A DNA stretch of 63,346 bases, the filler included, from Stramenopiles sp. TOSAG23-6 (lineage: Eukaryota): assembly GCA_900128565.1 (NCBI GenBank). It is 20 parts of 20 records of this genome, joined end to end, with 100 filler letters (N's around TTAATTAATTAA, not from the genome) between each part and the next. Parts side by side here need not be neighbours in the genome. Positions count along the whole stretch, not along the records: positions 35,012 to 38,078 come from LT637666.1; 19 more parts are not named here. One strand, written 5' to 3'. Position numbers and translations under genes: made by a program. Shown here piece by piece: positions 6,103 to 38,244 of this stretch. How positions within the stretch are numbered: the stretch's first letter is position 1; each line of letters starts with the position of its first letter. Under the pieces are notes generated by a model. The model saw nothing but the letters and a program-made list of their open reading frames with translations. It did not search any database and was not told the origin of the DNA.

Positions 6103-6478
6103 TTTTGATTTCGTGTTATAACGGCCGAAAAGCGCCGTAAAATAGAAGAAAAAAAAGAAGACATAAACGTAGGCAGACACAGGTGATTTCGCGGAGGAGA
6201 GTATACTTATTATGCTATAAATAATGCGATGAGGAAAGTTAAGAGGGAGAGTAATTTGAAGCAAGACTTGGCGGCTTCGAGAATACAGGCANNNNNNNNN
6301 NNNNNNNNNNNNNNNNNNNNNNNNNNNNNNNNNNNTTAATTAATTAANNNNNNNNNNNNNNNNNNNNNNNNNNNNNNNNNNNNNNNNNNNNAAAAAAAAA
6401 AACTTAAATTCGTTAGGTACAAAATTTCGTACGAAAAAAAAATCGATTTTTTTGGTAAAAAAAATAAATAAAACATAC

Positions 6479-8942
6479 ATCCTTTCGTCCTTATCAAGCT
6501 TTGCAATTAATGTATGAGATACTGTAAAATCGTTCTCAGACATCACATGAGGTTTCATTACATCAGTTTCATTTAATAATTGAATAGTGAGTGGCAGTTT
6601 GTAAATTTTCTTTTTTGGTTTTTTTGTTTTCTTTGGTTTTTTTGGTTTTTCGATCTTTTCCGTGTTTTCATCATCTTTTGTAGATGACTTTTCTTCATCA
6701 TCATCATCATTAGCATCTTTTGTAGATGACTTTTCTTCATCATCATCATCATTAGCATCTTTAGTAGATGACTTTTCTTCATCCTCATCATCATTAGCAT
6801 CTTTAGTAGATGACTTTTCTTCATCATCATTATCATCATCATCATTATCTTTAGTAGATGACTCTTCTTCATCAACAACATCTTCAACAGGTAAAATTTC
6901 TTCAAAGATTGCCTCTGCCTTTACAAGTCCTACAAGACCATTTTCATCAAGAAAAAAACTTAAATTAATTTTTGGCTCATCCAAATTTGAATATTTTTCA
7001 TCTTTCAATAAATCTTCAAGTCCAGATACGTCATATAGAGCAATGTCTTTGGCCGTACCTTCAGGAAGACTAAAGACTTTTGATGTATCGTAACGAAGCT
7101 TACATGTGAAATCAGAAGAATGTTTAAATTGTACTAATTTTCTAGAGACAAGTTTGTTGTTTCGTTTGAATAAAGTAGTACGTTTTGACCATATCTCAGG
7201 ATTAGGATTAGCCTCTGAAATATCTTCCATATCAGTGGGTAGTTTGTCTGCCAGACGAACGCCAACAGCAAAAGGTAAAATATCTTGCATGCCAACATGT
7301 TTTGTGAAAAAATATTTTTTTTTTTTTTCCGGTAAAAAATTTGTTAGGTACAAATTTTTTTGAAAAAAATAAATAAATTCGAAATTGAAAAAAATAAATA
7401 AATTCGAAATTGAAAAAAAAATAAATAAAACATACATGTCTCACACGAAATGCTTTAGATCGATTGGCTGCGTGAAACGCTGCACCCAAGGCCATCCCTT
7501 CATCTCCGTTGATATGCACAGCTAAATGCGTTGTATTTAAATGTTCTCTAAGCATTTCTTGAATTTTTGGAATGCGCACAGAACCACCAATGATTTCAAC
7601 CTCATCAACATCATTCACATCAATTCCTGCATCTTCTAAAACACGGTCTATAGGTTTCATAGCTTGAGCTAAATCTGCAGCAATTTTTTTTTCAAACTCT
7701 CTGCGAGTAATGACAAAACCACGTAAATCTTTATCTTTGTCCACACTCTCAATAAACACTGGGATTCTTTCATTTGCAGACAAAACTTCTTTGGTCTTTG
7801 TTGCTTGTTTTTGTATTTTAGCCCAAGATCTAGGTACGGTACGGACATCGTAATCAGGAAATTTTCCATTTTTGTTGACTACATTTGTATTAAACTCATC
7901 AGCAATCATGTTGGCAATGGACTGATCAAAATACGACCCACCAACNCCNTCTTCCCAGTGTTTTGATATTATCTCAAANTGAGANGAGACGACTTCTTTA
8001 CCTAATCGTTTTGTATTACGTGCTGTATAATAGGCAAGTGANGCTTGAACACTATTCGCACCCATATTGTAAAACAAAACACGATGNGTTTTGTTTTCGT
8101 ACGTACGATCAATCCCGTATTGTACGGCGGCTGCCGTGTTTTCATCAATTAACGAAATTACGTTTAATTTCGCGACTTTAGATGCATCGATTAAGGCACG
8201 CTTTTCCGTCTGTGTGAAAAAGGAAGGGACAGTGAGTACAACGTCATTAATTTTGGCATTCGCTTCTGCTTCGCCAATTTGTTTTGCATAGATCAAAATC
8301 ATGCCCATAATTTCTTCGACACTGTATTCTTCAGGCATNGAGACGTCATCAGAATGTTTTGATTCATAGAATGTATAGAGATATTAACGAGTTGTATATT
8401 GATAAGAAACAGGGAAATGGTCTCTGAAAAGTGTAAAAAGGAAAAAATATTTCACAGTTCTTTCTAATTTTTGCTTAGGTACAAAATGTCATACGACAAA
8501 AACAATATGGATTGGAATTAGGGTTAGGGTAACGTACGTCATACAAAGAGTTCTTGATTCGAAGAGAACCACGGGTATCATCTTCCACCAAAGTATGGTG
8601 AGACAAGAAAGTTTCAGATACTTTCCTAGTTATTGGATGAGTACTGTTACGTCCAAGCAAAGTGCGTGCAAATGTAAATGTTTGCAAAGGTTTACGCGTC
8701 ATCAAATTCTTTGCATCACCCGCAAACTGGCGAGCATTTTCATCATTAAATGCCATTGCAGTCTCTGTTTTACGCTTTGATGCTGTATTGGTAACAATTG
8801 TAAATGGATTGCCCGGTTTCACCAAAGCTACTTTAAAAAATAAAGAACCTAGATCAATACCAAGGACTAGAGCGGACGTCACGTGAAACGAAGATGCAAA
8901 CAGCAAAAGTGACATTACGAATGTTCTAATAGAGAAACGCAT
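6479..8942 (-). CDS. HYOU1: ER Hsp70-family chaperone HYOU1/GRP170, 3'-partial, copy 1
   Basis: Signal peptide, VLGIDLG, VVLTVPSFF, IIGGSVRIPKIQ, INGDEGMALGAAF and an acidic repeat region. Intron 7297-7435 (GT..AT) joins FRVRH|VGMQD. Confidence 0.9.
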
Positions 8943-9312
8943 GTTAAATGACTATTGTAGAGATATCTGAAAGACAAAAGTTTGATCGTTTGACGCGTCT
9001 ACTTCTGTTGGTGATACTAAATGAATGTAAGCTGCAGAGAATAAAATATAATGTTTGTAAGACTGAAATTACTTGCTTGCGGTTCTCGAGAGGAACTCAT
9101 CTGAGATGAACAACAAAACTGTTTGGTTTTGCGACGTGGCCAAAAAAAACAATATAAGCAGGTTTGTGCATTTAAAAAAAATCCAAAATAACGGCTACAA
9201 TCTAGATATGTCCACGGGTATCTAGCTAGCTAGGTATATCTTATCCGAATAACGGTTATCTACACCGTACAGTATCATTTCAAGAAAATAAATCTAAAAG
9301 ATTTCAAAAAGA

Positions 9313-9483
9313 ATGAAGAAGGTTATATCATTAAGCTTTGCTGCAGCAAGCGTACACGCATCAGGATCTGCAATAACTCCTCGTGAACTGGTTCTTGGAA
9401 ACCCCCAATGGAATGTCCTTACGAATACGTTTAATGAGAACTTTAACTCTAGCACGGAATACCGTACTCTAATGGCTCGTCTG
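9313..9483 (+). CDS. Hypothetical protein N-terminus, divergent from HYOU1 (repeated at 28399-28569)
   Basis: ATG-initiated open frame running into the linker, with a hydrophobic start. Confidence 0.4.
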
Positions 9484-15956: not shown

Positions 15957-18025
15957 AACTTTTTACTCGTGCACAAAACAGATTTCTCAAATTACAAATT
16001 CATTCTTCTAGTGAATTATGTACTGTATGTTTTCAGGATCAATTTAAATTTATTTATATTTTTATAAAAATTTTGTACCTAACAAAAAAAATGAAAATAT
16101 TTTCCTACAATACATACTAATAAAGGCAATGAGAATACTATTTTAAAAGTGATTGACTGGGGCACAGAACCAGATGTAGATTCAATTCTTATTGAACAAA
16201 ACAATAGTGACATTCAACTTGTAAAATTATTACATGTTTGGCTTGAGGGTGAAGGTGCTACCATTAGAGACAAATGTAGAATTTTTTTGAGACCGACAAA
16301 AAATGAAGAAATCCCATTACACCGTATCACAAATTCATGTATGTTTTATTTTTTTTTTCAAATTTGAATTTGTTTTCTTATGAAATTTTGTACCTAACAA
16401 TTATTTTTTTCAAATATTTTTCCAAAATACATAAACATCCTGGGGGAATCAGACATGACCATTCTCAAATATATGGAAGGATTGAACCATTATGTTATGA
16501 AGTGTATGTTTTATTTTATTTTTATTTCAATGTTGAATTTATTTTTCGTACACAATTTTGTACCTAACAAATTTGTTTTTGAAATATTTTTCCAAAATAC
16601 AAAACTTGTATTGGTAACGGCAACAAATGTTTGGTATTTACAGTGCCTGAATTTGGATCAAATGTTAGTAGATTGTTGCGAGACGATTTGGGTCGTGCCG
16701 GTGTTGTTCGCAGTGAATCAGAATTAAGAATATTTTGCTGGACTTCAGGTTTTCGCTTCCCAAAGCAGACTTCTTTTGAGAAATCTGAGTTCTATAAGTT
16801 GAGCAGAAAAACAACAGCACTTGAACTGACAGAACGATTTCGCGAAAGAGGCATTATTCCGAATGATGTTCAGTTCCTATGCCAAGGTAGTGTTGGTGGT
16901 AAAACAAGGGTCATTGGCCATGCTAGGTCAGCCTTTTTGTATGTTTTCATTATGAATTTCAAATGTATTTTATTTTCATACAAAATGTTGTACCTAAATT
17001 ATTTTTTTTATTTTTGAAATATTTTTTCACAATATATAAAAGATGGTGGAAGTAGAAAAGGCTTCGACATATTGCAAAATCATACGTCGGAAGAAACTTT
17101 CGATGGGCTTTGTGGAACACTTGTGCATCCGCATTTTGTAAAACTCGGACGTATGGGTGTGTACAAAGTGGCACTGGAAAGAGCACCCAACAAAGAGGAG
17201 TTTCGTAAGAAGTATCAAAAACTTTTGGATGAGTATGGTTTGGAAGAAGCCGGCAAATTTGCTAATGTTGTGGCATATGGATCATGTGGTGAAATTCTTA
17301 GTCAAAAGCACGTCAAATGTCATTATGACAAGGAAGGCAGCCTTTCTAGTGAAATTATCTGCACGAATACCGTCCAAGGTATACGTCTATGGACGAACTA
17401 TAAATGTGATAAATGTGGAGATTGGCATCGATCTCGTGTTGTAGTGCAAAAGACAACAAATAATGGTGTAGTATCCGCAAAAATTGGGTGTACTGTTCAT
17501 TGTAAAAAAACGAAAACTATTAAGTCATTTGATCATGCATATATTGAAAGAGTTCCCTTTCATTTTATCAATGAAGATTGTTTCAAAGGTTGTCGATGTT
17601 TTATTTGCGCAAATGAACATTCAGATAAACCTGTCAATATTGAAAAACCTAAGAAAAGAAGTAAAGGTACTCTCAGCATTGGAACAATTATAGAACTTGC
17701 TGATGCGAAACGTCTGAAACATATTGAAGATGAACATGAAAAGCATCCAAACAGGCAAAAAAAAACCCTCAAGCAAGAAAATCCTATAAGAGAAGATCTT
17801 ACACGTTTCGTAAAATGCACAAAAAATGGAGAACCAAATCTTACCCTAATCCAGTCTAGTTCAAAAGGTGATTTGATGGTGCGAATTGGTGGTAAACATG
17901 GTAAAACTATTGCAATCAGCGGAGTGAAAAATCTTGAAATGGTTCCGTTTTCGTGTCCTCGAGGTGAATCTTGTCCGTGTACATTTTGTGAAAGACGTCG
18001 TAACAACTTAAAAGAAGAAGACTGA
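15957..18025 (+). CDS. Multi-exon hypothetical Cys/His-rich protein, 5'-partial
   Basis: Four family introns (16025-16115, 16339-~16430, 16504-~16602, 16939-17037) connect the ORF segments. CxxC and CxC clusters in the last exon. Confidence 0.6.
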
Positions 18026-25395: not shown

Positions 25396-25582
25396 NNNNN
25401 NNNNNNNNNNNNNNNNNNNNNNNNNNNNNNNNNNNNNNNTTAATTAATTAANNNNNNNNNNNNNNNNNNNNNNNNNNNNNNNNNNNNNNNNNNNNAAAAA
25501 AAAAAACTTAAATTCGTTAGGTACAAAATTTCGTACGAAAAAAAAATCGATTTTTTTGGTAAAAAAAATAAATAAAACATAC

Positions 25583-28028
25583 ATCCTTTCGTCCTTATCA
25601 AGCTTTGCAATTAATGTATGAGATACTGTAAAATCGTTCTCAGACATCACATGAGGTTTCATTACATCAGTTTCATTTAATAATTGAATAGTGAGTGGCA
25701 GTTTGTAAATTTTCTTTTTTGGTTTTTTTGTTTTCTTTGGTTTTTTTGGTTTTTCGATCTTTTCCGTGTTTTCATCATCTTTTGTAGATGACTTTTCTTC
25801 ATCATCATCATCATTAGCATCTTTTGTAGATGACTTTTCTTCATCATCATCATCATTAGCATCTTTAGTAGATGACTTTTCTTCATCCTCATCATCATTA
25901 GCATCTTTAGTAGATGACTTTTCTTCATCATCATTATCATCATCATCATTATCTTTAGTAGATGACTCTTCTTCATCAACAACATCTTCAACAGGTAAAA
26001 TTTCTTCAAAGATTGCCTCTGCCTTTACAAGTCCTACAAGACCATTTTCATCAAGAAAAAAACTTAAATTAATTTTTGGCTCATCCAAATTTGAATATTT
26101 TTCATCTTTCAATAAATCTTCAAGTCCAGATACGTCATATAGAGCAATGTCTTTGGCCGTACCTTCAGGAAGACTAAAGACTTTTGATGTATCGTAACGA
26201 AGCTTACATGTGAAATCAGAAGAATGTTTAAATTGTACTAATTTTCTAGAGACAAGTTTGTTGTTTCGTTTGAATAAAGTAGTACGTTTTGACCATATCT
26301 CAGGATTAGGATTAGCCTCTGAAATATCTTCCATATCAGTAGGAAGCTTGTCTGCCAGACGAACGCCAACAGCAAAAGGTAAAATATCTTGCATGCCGAC
26401 ATGTTTTGTGAAAAAATATTTTTGTTTTTGTACAATTTGTTAGGTACAAAATTTTTTGAAAAAAATAAATAAATTCGAAATTGAAAAAAAATTTTGTTAA
26501 AAAAAAATAAATAAAAAATACATGTCTCACACGAAATGCTTTAGATCGATTGGCTGCGTGAAACGCTGCACCCAAGGCCATCCCTTCATCTCCGTTGATA
26601 TGCACAGCTAAATGCGTTGTATTTAAATGTTCTCTAAGCATTTCTTGAATTTTTGGAATGCGCACAGAACCACCAATGATTTCAACCTCATCAACATCAT
26701 TCACATCAATTCCTGCATCTTCTAAAACACGGTCTATAGGTTTCATAGCTTGAGCTAAATCTGCAGCAATTTTTTTTTCAAACTCTCTGCGAGTAATGAC
26801 AAAACCACGTAAATCTTTATCTTTGTCCACACTCTCAATAAACACTGGGATTCTTTCATTTGCAGACAAAACTTCTTTGGTCTTTGTTGCTTGTTTTTGT
26901 ATTTTAGCCCAAGATCTAGGTACGGTACGGACATCGTAATCAGGAAATTTTCCATTTTTGTTGACTACATTTGTATTAAACTCATCAGCAATCATGTTGG
27001 CAATGGACTGATCAAAATACGACCCACCAACNCCNTCTTCCCAGTGTTTTGATATTATCTCAAANTGAGANGAGACGACTTCTTTACCTAATCGTTTTGT
27101 ATTACGTGCTGTATAATAGGCAAGTGANGCTTGAACACTATTCGCACCCATATTGTAAAACAAAACACGATGNGTTTTGTTTTCGTACGTACGATCAATC
27201 CCGTATTGTACGGCGGCTGCCGTGTTTTCATCAATTAACGAAATTACGTTTAATTTCGCGACTTTAGATGCATCGATTAAGGCACGCTTTTCCGTCTGTG
27301 TGAAAAAGGAAGGGACAGTGAGTACAACGTCATTAATTTTGGCATTCGCTTCTGCTTCGCCAATTTGTTTTGCATAGATCAAAATCATGCCCATAATTTC
27401 TTCGACACTGTATTCTTCAGGCATNGAGACGTCATCAGAATGTTTTGATTCATAGAATGTATAGAGATATTAACGAGTTGTATATTGATAAGAAACAGGG
27501 AAATGGTCTCTGAAAAGTGTAAAAAGGAAAAAATATTTCACAGTTCTTTCTAATTTTTGCTTAGGTACAAAATGTCATACGACAAAAACAATATGGATTG
27601 GAATTAGGGTTAGGGTAACGTACGTCATACAAAGAGTTCTTGATTCGAAGAGAACCACGGGTATCATCTTCCACCAAAGTATGGTGAGACAAGAAAGTTT
27701 CAGATACTTTCCTAGTTATTGGATGAGTACTGTTACGTCCAAGCAAAGTGCGTGCAAATGTAAATGTTTGCAAAGGTTTACGCGTCATCAAATTCTTTGC
27801 ATCACCCGCAAACTGGCGAGCATTTTCATCATTAAATGCCATTGCAGTCTCTGTTTTACGCTTTGATGCTGTATTGGTAACAATTGTAAATGGATTGCCC
27901 GGTTTCACCAAAGCTACTTTAAAAAATAAAGAACCTAGATCAATACCAAGGACTAGAGCGGACGTCACGTGAAACGAAGATGCAAACAGCAAAAGTGACA
28001 TTACGAATGTTCTAATAGAGAAACGCAT
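25583..28028 (-). CDS. HYOU1: HYOU1/GRP170 copy 2 (alternative assembly path or haplotype of the 6392-9483 contig)
   Basis: Same sequence and same N positions as copy 1, except around intron 26401-26521. Confidence 0.88.
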
Positions 28029-28669
28029 GTTAAATGACTATTGTAGAGATATCTGAAAGACAAAAGTTTGATCGTTTGACGCGTCTACTTCTGTTGGTGA
28101 TACTAAATGAATGTAAGCTGCAGAGAATAAAATATAATGTTTGTAAGACTGAAATTACTTGCTTGCGGTTCTCGAGAGGAACTCATCTGAGATGAACAAC
28201 AAAACTGTTTGGTTTTGCGACGTGGCCAAAAAAAACAATATAAGCAGGTTTGTGCATTTAAAAAAAATCCAAAATAACGGCTACAATCTAGATATGTCCA
28301 CGGGTATCTAGCTAGCTAGGTATATCTTATCCGAATAACGGTTATCTACACCGTACAGTATCATTTCAAGAAAATAAATCTAAAAGATTTCAAAAAGAAT
28401 GAAGAAGGTTATATCATTAAGCTTTGCTGCAGCAAGCGTACACGCATCAGGATCTGCAATAACTCCTCGTGAACTGGTTCTTGGAAACCCCCAATGGAAT
28501 GTCCTTACGAATACGTTTAATGAGAACTTTAACTCTAGCACGGAATACCGTACTCTAATGGCTCGTCTGNNNNNNNNNNNNNNNNNNNNNNNNNNNNNNN
28601 NNNNNNNNNNNNNTTAATTAATTAANNNNNNNNNNNNNNNNNNNNNNNNNNNNNNNNNNNNNNNNNNNN

Positions 28670-31885: not shown

Positions 31886-32368
31886 GAATAATTTCTTCAC
31901 TGCCCAACGATTAGTACTCGTAACGTTTCTACGTGTCATAATTTTATTTGCATTTTTTGCGACGACTACGTTTCCTTTAAAAAAACCAATGAACACTTTT
32001 GCTCTTGCTGAAACTTTTATTGTTGTGTTATTGGGATTGTCGAACGGATGTATGTTTTCAAAATTTCAATTTCGAATTTACTTTTCGTACGAAATTTTGT
32101 ACCTAACAAATTTTAATTTTTTTTTGATTTTTTTTACTAATTTCGAATTTATTTGTTTTGTAGAAAGTTTTGTACCTAACGATTTTTTTTACCAAAAAAA
32201 AAAAAAATATTGTTTCACAATACATGGTTATGTACGATAACAATGCTCAAAGCACCTTTGATTGTACCAGTCACTTCGGCTTCCCAAGCAGGTTTGTGTA
32301 TGACTTTTTTTGTGCTCCTAGGTCTGACTTTTGGTATATTTGTGTCAAGTGCAATTCCTGATTTGTAA
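31886..32368 (+). CDS. Equilibrative nucleoside transporter C-terminus; intron 32050-32225 (GT..AT)
   Basis: Spliced LLGLSNGWLCTITMLKAP...AGLCMTFFVLLGLTFG matches ENT TM10-11. Confidence 0.75.
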
Positions 32369-32572
32369 AAAACGGTTATATTATAAAGAATAGTATATTA
32401 ATAATTAAATTGTAGTCTCGTCTCGTCTATTTTTCTCAATTTAACAGATGAATATTCAGAATTCAGAAAAAAAAAAATCGAAATCGTCTCGTCGGGTCAG
32501 CTCGCTTGCGCGTTGGCCAAGTTTCTTAAGCAGTCACATATCTCATGAAAAGTTCTGTACTAGTGTGTTACA

Positions 32573-34853
32573 ATGGCAACATCTGTACAAAAATATAGTC
32601 AAATTGAACTACCACCACGTCTTACTGACGTACTCCGGTTAGTTCTAACAAATAGAGGAGTTCCCGTTGATATCAGTGGTGAATTTGATGCACGGCTTCG
32701 GCTATTTTCTAAGAGACAGGCAATGCCATCTACTGATTCTTTCACGTGGTCTTTTTTCTCACGTATGCGTTCTTCTCTTGCCCCAGTTCAAACACGTACC
32801 GAACAACAAAAGATTCGCGAAAAATTTGCAATGTTTGTCAAACTATCTGGACAAGCAGTTGGTGATGATGGAGAAAGTTTTGGAATAGCAAGTGTTGCAG
32901 CAAAGACAATACTACGAATTGCAGTGCGTTCCATTACAAATACCTTCACACGTTTTCAAATAAAAGCTCTAATATCAAAGGAGTTTGATATTATTTATGA
33001 TTATAATAAGATAGAAAATGCATTAAAGGTCGGGAGAGAACTGTATGAATGGCTTCAATCAAGTTCGTCAACTCTACGAAAGGATATATTCCGAGATAAT
33101 ACACAATTTGGACAAGATATTGAAATTGCCACCGCGAGTGATAGTATTAGTTTACCCATACCTCGACATCTTTTAAGAACAACAAACACTGCGACATCTA
33201 AAAGTTCATTTGATAAAATTAGTTCTATTGGAGTTGGCACTCAGAAAATTCGAAATTCCGTAGGTAATTCCAGTACAAAAAACAAAAAAAACATTTCGAA
33301 TTTGCCAAGTTCTACCCCTCTGTCTGGTTCTAATCAAAATATCAAAGCAGACGCTCAGTGGCTAGTATGTGTTTGTGAGCAACACCTTGCTATAGCAGAA
33401 TCATCTGGGAATTTTGATGGGACAAATATTTGGACTGCACAGACATTAGCTGAGCAAGTTATTTCTCTTTTTCGTTCTGATTCTGATGATAGTCAATTAC
33501 AAGCTGATCTTTTTGGCCTTTTCGGCGTTGCAGGATTTGATACTATCGCCGAACTATTTCAAAGAAAAGACGAAATTGTTGACATTAACTTAAATGAATT
33601 ATTCATATATTCTACACAAAATGTACGAAATTCCGTACCTATTTCCGTATCTAAAGGTCCACATATTGGATTACGTGTCACTTCAAAAGCAGAGAAAAAT
33701 GCTGAGAAACAAGAAAGAAAACGTTCTCGTCGTTTTGGTAGGCACATGAATGCACAATCCAAAAACAATCAAGTTCATATGAATAGTGGGAGTAGTCTTC
33801 TTCAACATCTTGGTTTCTCTGAAGAATATTTAGATGAACAGCACGCGTTAGGTTTGAAAACTTTATCTAAATCTCGTACGTTTTCATTTCAAGTTCGAAT
33901 GTAGTTTTCTTTTTTTATAGTAAATTTTGTACCTAACAAACTTTAATTTTTTTTTTAAATATTTTTTCTAAAATAGGTGCAGATCAAGGTGTCAGTTTAC
34001 GTAAAAGAATGGGACTGGGTAAAGCTTTTATTGGTAAGCATAACACTGGACTACCACCGGGCACTATACGACAGCAATTCAAAGGATATGAAGAAGTTCG
34101 TGTGCGTTTTTAGTATGACTATTTTTGTCTTTTTTGTTTTCATACGAAATGTTATACCTAACGTTTTTTATTTTTTTTTGAAATATTTTTCGCAGTTCAT
34201 GTCCCTGCTTTGCAAGCACGTAAAAATGAACAGGAACGATCTCCTGTTCTAATAAATTCCTTACCTGAATGGGCACAACTAGCATTCAAAAATACAAAAT
34301 CCTTGAATAAGCTACAATCTGCGTTATTTAACGTTGCTTTTGAATCTAGTCGCAACATGCTTGTATGTGCTCCCACTGGTGCTGGTAAAACAAATGTTGC
34401 AATGCTAACAATATTGCGAGAAATTTCCCTCCATATTCAAAATTCCAAAATTGAAAAAAATGATTTTAAGATTGTATATGTTGCTCCGATGAAAGCTTTG
34501 GCTCAGGAAGTAGTCACAAAATTTTCTCAGCGTTTGAAATCCCTTGGTATCAAAGTTGCTGAGTTGACCGGGGATATGCAAATGACAAAAAAAGAAATTT
34601 CTGAAACGCAAATAATGTATGTTTTATTTTTGTTTCAATTTCGAATTTATTTTTTTATAAAAAATTTGTACCTAACGAATTTTTTTTTGAAATATTTTTC
34701 CAAAATGCATTGTAACTACACCTGAAAAATGGGATGTCATTACACGAAAAGCAGGGGATGGCTCTTTAGTGGAAAAATTACGACTCCTAATTATCGACGA
34801 GGTGCACTTACTAGCTAGTGACAGAGGGGCTGTTATTGAAGTTTTAGTGGCAC
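32573..34853 (+). CDS. ASCC3: Ski2-like helicase ASCC3/Slh1, 3'-partial; introns 33876-33976, ~34102-34200, 34617-34710
   Basis: [64 protein letters not shown]. Confidence 0.82.
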
Positions 34854-35093
34854 GTTTGTTTTATTTTTTTCAAATTCGAATTTTTTTTCGTACGAAATTT
34901 TGTACCTAACANNNNNNNNNNNNNNNNNNNNNNNNNNNNNNNNNNNNNNNNNNNNTTAATTAATTAANNNNNNNNNNNNNNNNNNNNNNNNNNNNNNNNN
35001 NNNNNNNNNNNAAAAAAAAATCTAAAAAAATTTGTTAGGTACGAAATTTCGTACGAAAAAAAAAATTAAATTAGAAATTCATATAAAACATAC

Positions 35094-35623
35094 ACTGACT
35101 TGAAGCTTACTGTGTAACTTATCACTTAAGGATTTTAGAGAATTCATCTGTTTATCAGTTAGTTTACCTTCCATCATTTCTCTTGAATGTGTTTTAGAAA
35201 AATATTTCAAAATTTACTATAAAAAAAAAATTGTTAGGTACAAAATTTTTATAAAAAAAAAAATTCGATGTTTTTTTTTTTTACCGAAAAAAAAAAAAAA
35301 AATAAAAACATACATGTTGCTCACGAGATATTAAACCTTCCACTTCTTTATATCGACTTCCAACATCATTTACAATATTTCCAATTTTTACAAGAACTTC
35401 ACCACGATGCCCATCCATTTTTGAATGTATTTCATCAGTATACCGTTGTAAATTTGAATGAAATTTTGCATCCATTGAGGACACATCATCGACAATTACT
35501 TCTCGTGCACGTGCATGCTCATCAAATGAATTTTGGAAAAATATTTCAAAAAAAAAATTTTAAAATTTGTTAGGTACGAAATTTCGTACGAAAAAAAAAA
35601 TTCGATTTTTTTTTTTTTTTACC

Positions 35624-35654
<31 letters not shown>

Positions 35655-36659
35655 CATACATGAACCACGGATGTGTTCTTTTAATTGGTCATGTTGACGT
35701 TGATGGTCACTTAAAACTTTTTCATGATTTCCAAAAGATGTATGTAAACCTCGTATCTTTGGCTCCAATTGTTCTTGGTATGTATTTTGGAAAAATATTT
35801 CAAAATTTTTTTACCGAAAAAAAAAAAAATGTTAGGTACAAAATTTTCTACCAAAAAACGAAAAAAAAAAAATTATTCAAAAAAAAAAAAAAAAAACATA
35901 CATTGGCGTTGTATTCGTGCATGATCCTCAAATTGACCTTGAATGTGGTCTACGAGGGTATCATGAGCAGTTTTGTGTTCCTGTACTGTTTATGAAATAT
36001 TTTGTTACAATTTGTTACAATTTGTTACAATTTGTTACAATTTGTAGAAATACTCTTTTTCAAAAAAAAAAAAAAAAAAAATCTTAGGTACAAAATTTCG
36101 TATGAAAAAAAAAACGTACATTTAATGTGGTCTGAAAGCCATAGATACTTTCATCAGCCTTCCGATGAGCGCCTTCCATTTTTAAATCTATCTCACCCCA
36201 ATTTTGATCATACTTTTGAAACCTAGAATCAACTCTTCCAACAAATTCTTCATGATTTAGTTTATGCCTTTCTGTTGCTTCTTCCAAAGCTTCAACTGCC
36301 TTCATTGCATTTTGAGATTCAGTATCTATTCTTGAGTTATACTTCCGCTCGTGCTCGAGTATCGTTTTATCAACCAAATGCTGATGATCTTCAAATATTC
36401 TTGCATGTTGAGCTGCAATTTTAGTTTCAGACATTCCCATTTTACGTTCAAGATTTTCAAGACCTTTTGTAATTTCTCTTGTGACGCGATCGAAACTGTC
36501 TTCGATAATGACACGGTTTTTTTCTTCTTCAATGAGTCGTAATTCGATCTCCCTTGTTTTATCTTCAACCAATTTAAATTTTGCATCTAAAATATCAGAT
36601 GCAGTTGTAAAGGCACCACCTGCAGTCAATTCACCACTACTCACTGGTGAAATATTCAT
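35094..36659 (-). CDS. Coiled-coil hypothetical protein with 5 exons, 3'-partial
   Basis: Introns 35981-36119 (AG) and 35780-35901, 35526-35659, 35187-35313 (all AT) give one continuous frame. Confidence 0.7.
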
Positions 36660-37017
36660 GATGTATTTTAATGTACAATACAAAGATTATTAATCTGAAT
36701 GAATAGATTTGTTATTGTATTTTATTAGTAAAGGGAAGATACGAAAAAAAAAAAAAAAAAAAAAAACCGACGACCGTTACTTTTTCTTGAGCTTGGAAAA
36801 AAAGCCGATTTTTCGTGTTTTTCGAGATAAATTAAATTGATTGGTGCCCAACAACAACAACAAATCTCTCAAATCGAAAAATGTTGACATTGTTGTTGTT
36901 GGGAATTTTCTTTTCCGATTTTAAAACAACGAGTTTTTCTTTTTCTACTTGAATGGATGACACAATTATAAAATCATTGGTTTTGATTTTTTTTTTTAAT
37001 CACTAGGAATATTGTAC

Positions 37018-37966
37018 ATGCGGGGGCCACTGGATGTTTGGCATACACCAAACTCATCTGGTAGTCCTTCAAAATCAGATTGTTCTACGTCAAACTTAAA
37101 CGATGAAGAGTGTGACTTTCTTTCGTTGCCACGGCAAAAGTTTTTTCCATTTCGATACAACTTGACAGGCGCTGACGCAGATATTGTGTATTCATTGATG
37201 CGTATTCCACATTCTATTGATTTAGAAGGGCTCATTCGGTCATGCTCAGCAAAACTTTCAGAAGGTGTCATTACGCGAGTGGAATACGAGGATATATTAA
37301 TGAATACTCTAGCACTCTTTGAACATAATATTGAACACGAAATGCTTGAGAAGCCATTAGAAGATACATCATGGCGTTTTCTTCTCCCTAGAACAACTTT
37401 TGAAGCACAAAAAATAGAGTTAAAAAAAGAGAAACGCTTGAAAACACCATCAAATATATTCGTTCATTGCGCCATGGTTATTCAGGGTGATACTCAAAAT
37501 TTTATCGACACAGTACAAGGAAAAAACGGCCGACCTGCTCAAGAACAACTATTGTTTACAACGTTTTCCTCTGGAGGTACAACTACATTGAAGCCATCTG
37601 TTGAATGTTGGAAGGTTGGCTCGTCTCCATGTTCTAATTTATATCCAATTGTACCCGAACAGACTCCTCTATTTGCATTTCCCAGGGGAATTTCTTTAAC
37701 GACTCAACCAAAGCCAATAGAGTACAGATCATTTTATTTTAAAGCAATTCAATTATACGGACATTGTTATATTGGATATGCTCCATTACGAACAAACCTG
37801 TCTACTATAACACATCATTCTAAAATGAAATTTTTGAAGAACATGTCAAGAGAATCAACAGTACAATCACAACAAAATGAATTAGGGTTAGGGTTATTTG
37901 ATGATTTTATGAGTACTACGATATACGAACCATTTTGCTTTTGTATATTATCGAAAGGGCCAATAT
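37018..37966 (+). CDS. DENN-domain (uDENN/DENN start) protein, 3'-partial
   Basis: LFAFPRG, LYGHC and YEPFCFCILSK motifs, followed by an intron to the contig end. Confidence 0.6.
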
Positions 37967-38244
37967 GTGTGTTGTATTTTTTTTTTCAATTTTTTTTTTT
38001 TTTGATGTTTTTTTCATACGAAATTTTGTACCTAACAATTTTTTTTTTTTTGGTAAATTTTTAAATATTTTTCCAAAANNNNNNNNNNNNNNNNNNNNNN
38101 NNNNNNNNNNNNNNNNNNNNNNTTAATTAATTAANNNNNNNNNNNNNNNNNNNNNNNNNNNNNNNNNNNNNNNNNNNNTTCATACGAAATTTTGTACCTA
38201 ACAAATTTTAGTTTTTTTTTTTGAAATATTTTTTCAAAATACAT

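Follow-up and report, generated by a model that had tools for sequence, protein, structure and literature searches.

Proximal AGs and the 3' ends of a repeated intron family in Stramenopiles sp. TOSAG23-6

What marks the 3' end of an intron is the question raised by two introns in a stretch of 63,346 nt from the genome of Stramenopiles sp. TOSAG23-6 (GenBank assembly GCA_900128565.1; the window, along which all positions are counted), namely a minus-strand intron in the gene for a coiled-coil protein without a Pfam family (the focal intron) and the second intron of a gene for a helicase of the ASCC3/Brr2 type (ASCC3 intron 2). In each, a CAG lies a few bases upstream of the apparent end, and an initial annotation, whose letters and coordinates for both sites were confirmed on the sequence, had suggested that such AGs are skipped in favour of a position at a set distance from an upstream ATATT, scanning being replaced by measurement. 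One part of this proposal stands, as the first AG after the branch-site-like box is not the site; the measuring of a distance does not follow from the spacing, because ATATT and the cut share the 3' arm of one repeated element, and constant spacing between them is no proof that it is measured. AG is not the 3' splice signal in this intron family, hence the passing over of proximal AGs follows, and "skipping" is a misleading frame where AG is not the normal signal. The reading favoured here, at a probability of roughly 0.7, is that the introns are diverged copies of one family, which are removed from the RNA with the 3' cut set locally by the 3' arm.

For the focal intron, the site can be read from RNA. 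Contigs assembled from four seawater metatranscriptome runs of two studies (X1-X4) were aligned to positions 35012-38078; the runs contain 7-11% of the sampled words of 32560-36700, and the organism is thus marine. One contig in X2 and one in X3 join 36120 to 35980, with 33 letters on the shorter side of the joint in the former and 72 in the latter, which is 671 nt long and aligns to 36679-36119 and then to 35979-35908. The joint from 35979 to 36119 (139 nt skipped, CT..AC, cut shifted by one) corresponds to GT (36119)...AG (35981) on the minus strand, so that the proximal CAG is passed over and, of the two junctions that the initial annotation had set against each other, 35981 is the one seen in RNA. 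No joint at 35985/35986, where use of the proximal CAG would place it, occurs among the 15 joints listed of 39, in assembled contigs, which suppress rare variants. The reading frames agree with the RNA: the upstream exon ends in phase 0 at 36120 (...FQTTLN), and the proximal CAG (+10 from ATATT) gives YRNTKLLMIPS*, with a stop after 11 codons, whereas the distal CAG (+15) keeps the frame open (EHKTAHDTLVDHIQGQFEDHARIQRQ), just as had been predicted. The RNA contigs support the distal CAG as the dominant site, and some use of the proximal one would still be compatible with them.

The focal intron also separates the 3' site from the upstream signals. Three AGs between its box and the used site are passed over, and the distance from box to 3' site is 104 nt, compared with 34-53 nt in the other 19 tabulated rows, as a result of the four tandem copies of TTGTAACAAA. 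Despite this 40-nt insertion, the site keeps its position relative to the 3' arm, which indicates that it is set locally in the arm and not measured from the box. Each copy of the tandem repeat includes a branch-site-like TGTAAC.

In ASCC3 intron 2, the cut was located by homology. Exon B ends at 34101 with the codons GAA GAA GTT CGT, and GTGCGT follows from 34102; the conceivable in-frame products are EEVRVP, EEVLHVP and EEVRHVP, the second of which would need a donor two bases further upstream in addition to the CAG at 34193-34195. In the alignment to P0243, the closest relative, exon B ends at residue 228 and exon C begins at residue 229, without a gap. Among the short homologues, EE[VI]xxP is found in 36 of the 37 with the motif, the remaining one being without the P, and among 120 long homologues listed, all 90 with a recognisable motif have EEVxxP (28 have no recognisable motif and 2 no anchor). 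EEVxxP spacing is thus present in 126 homologues, and EEVxxxP, with an extra residue, in none of those with a recognisable motif. The gap-free alignment and this spacing together place the intron at 34102..34200, so the expectation that EEVRVP fits the spacing of the family, with the cut after AT at 34200 and not after CAG at 34195, was borne out. A 3-nt repeat (TGT) allows three other formal placements; with a GT start, the intron ends in AT. No ASCC3 protein of the organism itself was among the proteins searched; the closest homologue among long proteins is a EukProt gene model (74% identity), the best short protein has 71% identity, and a PDB search with exon B in the correct frame gave zero matches.

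Intron ends other than AG are real in this genome, which follows from three lines of evidence. Firstly, an X4 contig of 763 nt (record 25) aligns to 35781-35665, 35529-35314 and 35186-35094, and its pieces are the products predicted for introns 35659..35526 and 35313..35187 of the coiled-coil gene; in the latter, the T run is immediately followed by a TATAG, which is left unused in favour of CAT. The start of the contig at 35781 also fits intron 35780..35901, given a 2-nt repeat (AT). Secondly, junction 35660|35525 has six formal placements, none of which is GT-AG or AT-AC, and GT is kept only as GT...AT. Thirdly, ASCC3 intron 3 is free of AGs downstream of its box, and exon C ends and exon D starts at residues 366 and 368 of P0243 and at residues 585 and 587 of human Brr2 (3jcr_C), so that exactly one split codon is left in both alignments; continuity across junction 34616|34711 is also found with four PDB chains. 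Spliced products are thereby shown for three junctions of one gene by RNA contigs and for two ASCC3 junctions by homology (Table 1).

Table 1. Introns of the coiled-coil and ASCC3 genes and the signals within the two introns in question; +n counts bases from ATATT.
Feature	Position	Strand	Support
Focal intron, GT...AG, 139 nt	35981..36119	-	RNA contigs X2 and X3; reading frames
Focal intron: 5' splice site GTACGT	36114..36119	-	sequence; RNA joint
Focal intron: box TACCTAAG, branch-site-like (family consensus TACCTAAC)	36083..36090	-	
Focal intron: run of 20 T after the box (pyrimidine tract)	36062..36081	-	
Focal intron: four exact tandem copies of TTGTAACAAA, between T run and 3' arm	36001..36040	-	
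Focal intron: ATATT anchor of the conserved 3' arm	35996..36000	-	
Focal intron: proximal CAG (+10), unused in RNA contigs	35986..35988	-	
Focal intron: distal CAG (+15), 3' splice site used	35981..35983	-	
Coiled-coil gene, intron GT...AT, 122 nt	35780..35901	-	reading frames
Coiled-coil gene, intron GT...AT, 134 nt; 5-nt direct repeat TTCAT at both junctions	35526..35659	-	X4 record 25
Coiled-coil gene, intron GT...AT, 127 nt	35187..35313	-	X4 record 25, joining 35314 to 35186
ASCC3 intron 1, GT...AG, 101 nt; TAG at +13	33876..33976	+	reading frames alone
ASCC3 intron 2, GT...AT, 99 nt	34102..34200	+	homology; EEVxxP spacing
ASCC3 intron 2: box TACCTAAC	34155..34162	+	
ASCC3 intron 2: ATATT anchor	34183..34187	+	
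ASCC3 intron 2: proximal CAG (+8), apparently unused	34193..34195	+	homology
ASCC3 intron 2: CAT (+13), end of the intron	34198..34200	+	
ASCC3 intron 3, GT...AT, 94 nt	34617..34710	+	homology

Nearly all introns of the window are probably copies of a single transposon-like element of ~100 nt. The order within the family is (C)AT|GTATGTTTT, often CAATTTCGAATTTATT, then TTTTCGTACGAAATTTTG-TACCTAAC, a T run and GAAATATTTTTCCAAAATACAT, which is directly followed by coding sequence. In the window, TTTGTACCTAAC occurs 62 times with up to two mismatches (6.8 expected), and most of the 56 TACCTAA sites have the same 5' and 3' modules around them. Twenty complete introns of 91-176 nt were tabulated, 19 after removal of a duplicate (boxes 7350 and 26446 lie in duplicate contigs). 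All 20 have a GT[AG][TC]G donor and a TACCTAA[CG] box that is followed by a T run, while the 19 end in AT (16), AG (2) or AA (1), the last three bases being CAT in 13, TAT in two, and AAT, CAA, TAG and CAG in one each. The spacing from ATATT to the cut is 13, 14 or 15 bases in these 19, and of 23 introns examined, 14 (13 distinct ones) have their best open frames joined by a GT donor and a cut at ATATT+14; the exceptions are ASCC3 introns 1 and 2 (+13) and the focal intron (+15). Further copies that appear to end in AG, as read from the sequence, lie at boxes 50658, 12414 and 50010, with the AG at +12, +13 and +14.

The repeats at the intron ends would fit an origin of the family from a transposon: direct repeats of 0-5 nt precede the junctions (at least 2 nt in 12 of 20 rows and at least 3 nt in 8 of 20), and the ends carry a short, imperfect inverted repeat, GTAT(G)TTTT / AAAATAC. 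The window yielded neither an autonomous element nor a transposase. Two introns, 32050-32225 (+, 176 nt) and 48653-48821 (-, 169 nt), contain two box modules each (32100 and 32173; 48758 and 48702), and here one cassette has apparently been inserted into, or duplicated within, another. The near-identical contigs at 6392-9483 and 25496-28569 are alleles or a duplicate assembly; they share an intron that is 139 nt long and starts with GTATGT in one (7435..7297) and is 121 nt long and starts with GTATTT in the other (26521..26401), the internal modules differing and the junctions being identical.

Against this background, AG has no special place at the 3' end. An AG lies within the 13-15 bases before the cut in 2 of 19 introns, about as base composition predicts; it is not their presence but their being left unused that is notable. 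AGs are passed over in 4 of the 19 non-duplicate introns (5 of the 20 tabulated rows). They number 6 in the 780 nt that separate box and 3' end and 11 in the 1135 nt of intron upstream of the box; as these rates are similar, there is no AG-exclusion zone such as canonical introns have. Mononucleotide shuffles predict 14.9 AGs after the box where 6 are observed, but the reading of this depletion as an exclusion zone was rejected, since the 5' halves are equally AG-poor and the scarcity is a property of the element. Of the features of a canonical intron cut at its first AG, the GT, the box and the pyrimidine tract are present, whereas an AG end is the exception (2/19) and use of the first AG and AG depletion are not found.

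Each copy carries a 5' site of its own (GTATGT or GTACGT) together with a box that resembles the branch site of yeast (TACCTAAC), a T run and the conserved arm GAAATATTTTTCCAAAATACAT. In the mechanism that we propose, the RNA would be removed by a U2-type spliceosome, with the box as the putative branch site, and the 3' cut would fall 12-15 bases beyond ATATT (14 in most cases), where a Y-A-N triplet closes the element. AG would be dispensable, the last base usually being T and sometimes G or A, and AGs born upstream by mutation (at +8 in ASCC3 intron 2, at +10 in the focal intron and, in others, nearer the box) would not be read as splice sites. A 3'-site factor with relaxed or changed specificity, comparable to the U2AF of Fritillaria, may read the U-rich part of the arm together with the terminal YAN. 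The elements are taken to be spliceosomal introns because of their coding-strand orientation, strong 5' site, branch-like box and T run. In the two genes whose junctions are supported by RNA or homology (ASCC3 and the coiled-coil gene), all elements have the orientation of the coding strand; in a crude test against open reading frames (ORFs), 31 of 42 boxes were co-oriented, a count confounded by at least three exceptions in the coiled-coil gene that are artefacts of poly-A/T ORFs and by several others that adjoin contig joins.

How the arm defines the site can be narrowed down to some extent. A weight matrix built from the anchor region alone, on 15 other introns, came within 1 nt of the used site in all three held-out introns; the proximal AGs are 5 nt off. 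A gapless matrix that covered the 3' arm in full failed to pick the used site of the focal intron. The simplest rule that fits all cases is the YA(T/G) nearest to +14, and the supposed ruler position can be described just as well as the YA(T/G) closest to the end of the element; a constant distance, a recognised 3' arm and paired intron ends all fit these data and are inseparable here.

The most serious competitor is a strict ruler, in which a factor or a small nuclear ribonucleoprotein bound to ATATT or the U-rich anchor measures ~14 nt and cuts whatever the sequence. The constant +14 in 13 different introns, the success of the anchor-only matrix in the three held-out introns, the variable terminal base (T, G or A) and a site that stays in place despite 40 nt inserted upstream of the anchor all speak in its favour, yet we consider it unlikely. 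The cut falls at +13, +14 or +15 (and, as it appears, at +12 elsewhere), always after Y/A-A-N, a triplet that a ruler would not track; the copies at boxes 685, 40405 and 21595 have no ATATT and nevertheless carry the terminal CACAATACAT; and constant spacing is what copies of one element would inherit.

Two known kinds of intron can be compared in this respect. In U12-type introns, the 3' site lies in a narrow distance window from an upstream motif and the terminal dinucleotide is relaxed, a combination that the present family resembles; their signals are a 5' site [AG]TATCCTT and a branch site TCCTTAAC located 10-15 nt from the 3' end, whereas the introns here start with GTATGTTTT and have 34-104 nt between the TACCTAAC box and the 3' site, so that they do not qualify as U12-type. 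In Giardia and Trichomonas, a fused branch-site/3'-site motif contains the branch point at a fixed distance from the cut, and the introns end in AG; the stereotyped 3' motif and the fixed distance to the cut are shared with the family described here, in which, by contrast, the branch-like box is far upstream and the ends are mostly AT.

Less probable than the ruler is the explanation that the ends of the intron pair. Here, the remnant inverted repeat GTAT(G)TTTT / AAAATAC would form a helix, with the cut 2 nt 3' of it and the proximal AG hidden inside. The minimum-energy fold of the focal intron looks like this, as nucleotides 1-8 pair with AAAC-A-GUAC, with the AG protruding as a 2-nt overhang and the proximal CAG inside the helix, and the same register (G1 with the C at -3) recurs in 5 of 20 folds with 4-8 pairs. 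Such inverted and direct repeats are also described for the introners of Amoebophrya (PMC7789003). However, the register is missing from the other 15 folds and the helices are weak and AU-rich; the best pairing in ASCC3 intron 2 (UGCG/CGCA) puts the cut 3 nt upstream, which would add one residue and is contradicted by the P0243 alignment and the 126 homologues; and a matching G at -6 is present in one of three GTAC-type introns, without consistent covariation.

For the focal intron, ordinary competition between the two AGs, 5 nt apart, might seem sufficient, with both being used and the proximal product lost to nonsense-mediated decay. It is established that neighbouring AGs compete in U2-type introns, a cut at the proximal CAG does produce a premature stop, and contigs display only dominant forms. 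We nevertheless regard this as improbable, because it can explain neither the CAT cut in ASCC3 intron 2 nor the other AT ends that RNA and homology support, and three further upstream AGs are passed over in the focal intron. Last, removal at the DNA level, as for the internal eliminated sequences of ciliates, or an assembly artefact is very improbable: the junction repeats of 0-5 nt, the weak terminal inverted repeats, the possible inclusion of DNA in RNA libraries and the occurrence of joined and unjoined contigs would suit it, but each copy has a sense-strand GTATGT, a branch box and a T run that DNA excision does not need, the joined forms come from poly(A) RNA libraries and several copies are without direct repeats.

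Several points weigh against splicing directed by a conserved 3' arm. As the introns are copies of one element, the counts above are not independent. The RNA support consists entirely of assembled contigs from one study (X2-X4), in which minor isoforms are hidden, and the evidence for the ASCC3 junctions is homology only. A search of the window against Rfam matched zero families. In intron 16339..16432 (+), a cut after CAT at +14 would bring a TAA into frame, and the neighbouring exon frames call for TAC at +12 (GT...AC), a hint of some flexibility, or for a 2-nt assembly error. It is possible that the variable spacing (12-15) reflects sloppy site choice that is filtered by selection or decay. 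Finally, X2 record 14 and X3 record 23 share an unexplained alignment end at 35908, which is 6 nt ahead of the predicted donor GT at 35901; a population variant near the exon end may account for this.

Some further observations concern the same data. Unspliced contigs are present as well (X1 records 6 and 7, X2 record 13). Summed RNA-contig word depth over parts of introns (35012-35114, 35218-35320 and 35527-35629) is hundreds to thousands of times that of exons, as would fit a large number of expressed copies and low-complexity A/T-rich sequence, and the depth of intron-box words (up to ~22000) mostly stems from low-complexity A/T runs and from the many copies and was not used. In an Hsp70-like gene, the 3' arm at 8423-8445 (-), with a duplicate near 27510-27530, reads ...TTTTTACAC|TTTTCAG|AGACC, and neither +15 (CAC) nor +22 (CAG) enters the frame in which the conserved exon further downstream is read; the contig has several single Ns, which makes a sequencing error likely.

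A family of introns with ends other than AG is of a kind already known from other marine eukaryotes, the closest systems being the transposon-derived, non-canonical introns of Fritillaria and Amoebophrya; the comparisons below refer to the available extracts of the articles. Fritillaria introns have inverted and target-site-like repeats and a U-rich tract (Soo et al., 2026, PMC13326754; PMC11282704). Their commonest 3' ending is AT (44% in F. pellucida and 34% in F. borealis), a YAY triplet often stands just ahead of the 5' site and closes the intron, and the main intron classes of F. borealis begin with AG (AG/AC, AG/AT; PMC13326754). They are removed by a U2-type spliceosome, divergent U2AF paralogues binding the non-AG ends (PMC13326754; PMC11282704). 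The family described here shares with them the marine setting, the mostly AT 3' ends and the U-rich tract, as well as termini other than GT/AG that are confirmed on a transcript (X4 record 25; 35660|35525); YAY forms the last three bases in 15 of 19 introns and precedes the 5' site in 7 of 19, with AAT there in five more. In contrast to F. borealis, the 5' end is a strong GTATGT or GTACGT, and neither a single stereotyped family with a TACCTAAC box nor a fixed distance to an internal anchor is described in the extracts for Fritillaria.

In Amoebophrya (Syndiniales), >60% of introns are non-canonical and repeated families occur (Farhat et al., 2021, PMC7789003). The ends of its introners are joined by inverted repeats of 8-20 nt and flanked by direct repeats of 3-5 nt, a transposon-like spread has been proposed, no clear signature of terminal dinucleotides is reported, and the genes have 54-58% GC (PMC7789003). 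Amoebophrya is likewise a marine protist with repeated intron families, and its design of inverted and direct repeats may have a counterpart in the short ones seen here. In the window, however, the termini are stereotyped (GT...AT), GC is ~33% and the end pairing is weak, with a terminal helix of 4-8 pairs in 5 of 20 folds and direct repeats of at least 3 nt in 8 of 20 rows.

Canonical introners, as in Micromonas, Aureococcus and dinoflagellates, are transposable elements that carry or create splice signals and yield many near-identical introns, and they are commoner in aquatic organisms (Gozashti et al., 2025, PMC12130899). The generation of many near-identical introns by transposon-like elements is common to these and to the present family, and in the extracts of the survey no GT...AT family is reported; the survey accepted AG or AC at the 3' end, and mainly non-canonical families were inspected by hand and discarded if unconfirmed (PMC12130899). 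No GT...AT introner family was found in the literature covered, which did not include Henriet et al. (2019) and supplements.

A bolder version, that almost the whole intron set is one mobile cassette, cut ~14 nt beyond ATATT at any Y-A-N and regardless of AG, is tentative and, in our judgement, rather unlikely. If true, it would mean a measuring rule like that of U12-type introns acting on introns whose 5' and branch signals are yeast-like and U2-type, and second-step or U2AF-type machinery that was re-tuned independently of Fritillaria. Why GT-AG is nearly universal is an open question, for which genomes that break the rule on a large scale are rare natural experiments. The design seen here is unusually clean, as one cassette combines canonical 5' and branch signals with a non-AG 3' end at a fixed place; a cassette of ~100 nt makes the choice of 3' site easy to dissect, since spacing, triplet and end pairing can be changed separately. 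On the practical side, gene finders that demand AG would mis-splice nearly every gene of this organism, and the ASCC3 protein would gain one residue through use of the in-frame CAG.

As to the window itself, it is made up of ~20 contigs of ~3.05-3.1 kb each, separated by runs of N and a TTAATTAATTAA linker. Its ORFs are eukaryotic and include the ASCC3/Brr2-type helicase, an armadillo-repeat protein, a MYND-finger protein and a cation-efflux zinc transporter, and a further ORF reads as a probable Hsp70-like protein. The named matches of the zinc transporter are mostly animal proteins with 35-54% identity, which database bias may explain. For a 437-residue ORF at 57861-59174 (-), a guess of an AP2 DNA-binding domain was rejected, as Pfam gave no match even at E = 1. 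The contigs are ordered by falling size, from 3098 to 3053 bases, and many of their ends fall within the T/A runs of family introns, hence the intron family itself fragments the assembly.

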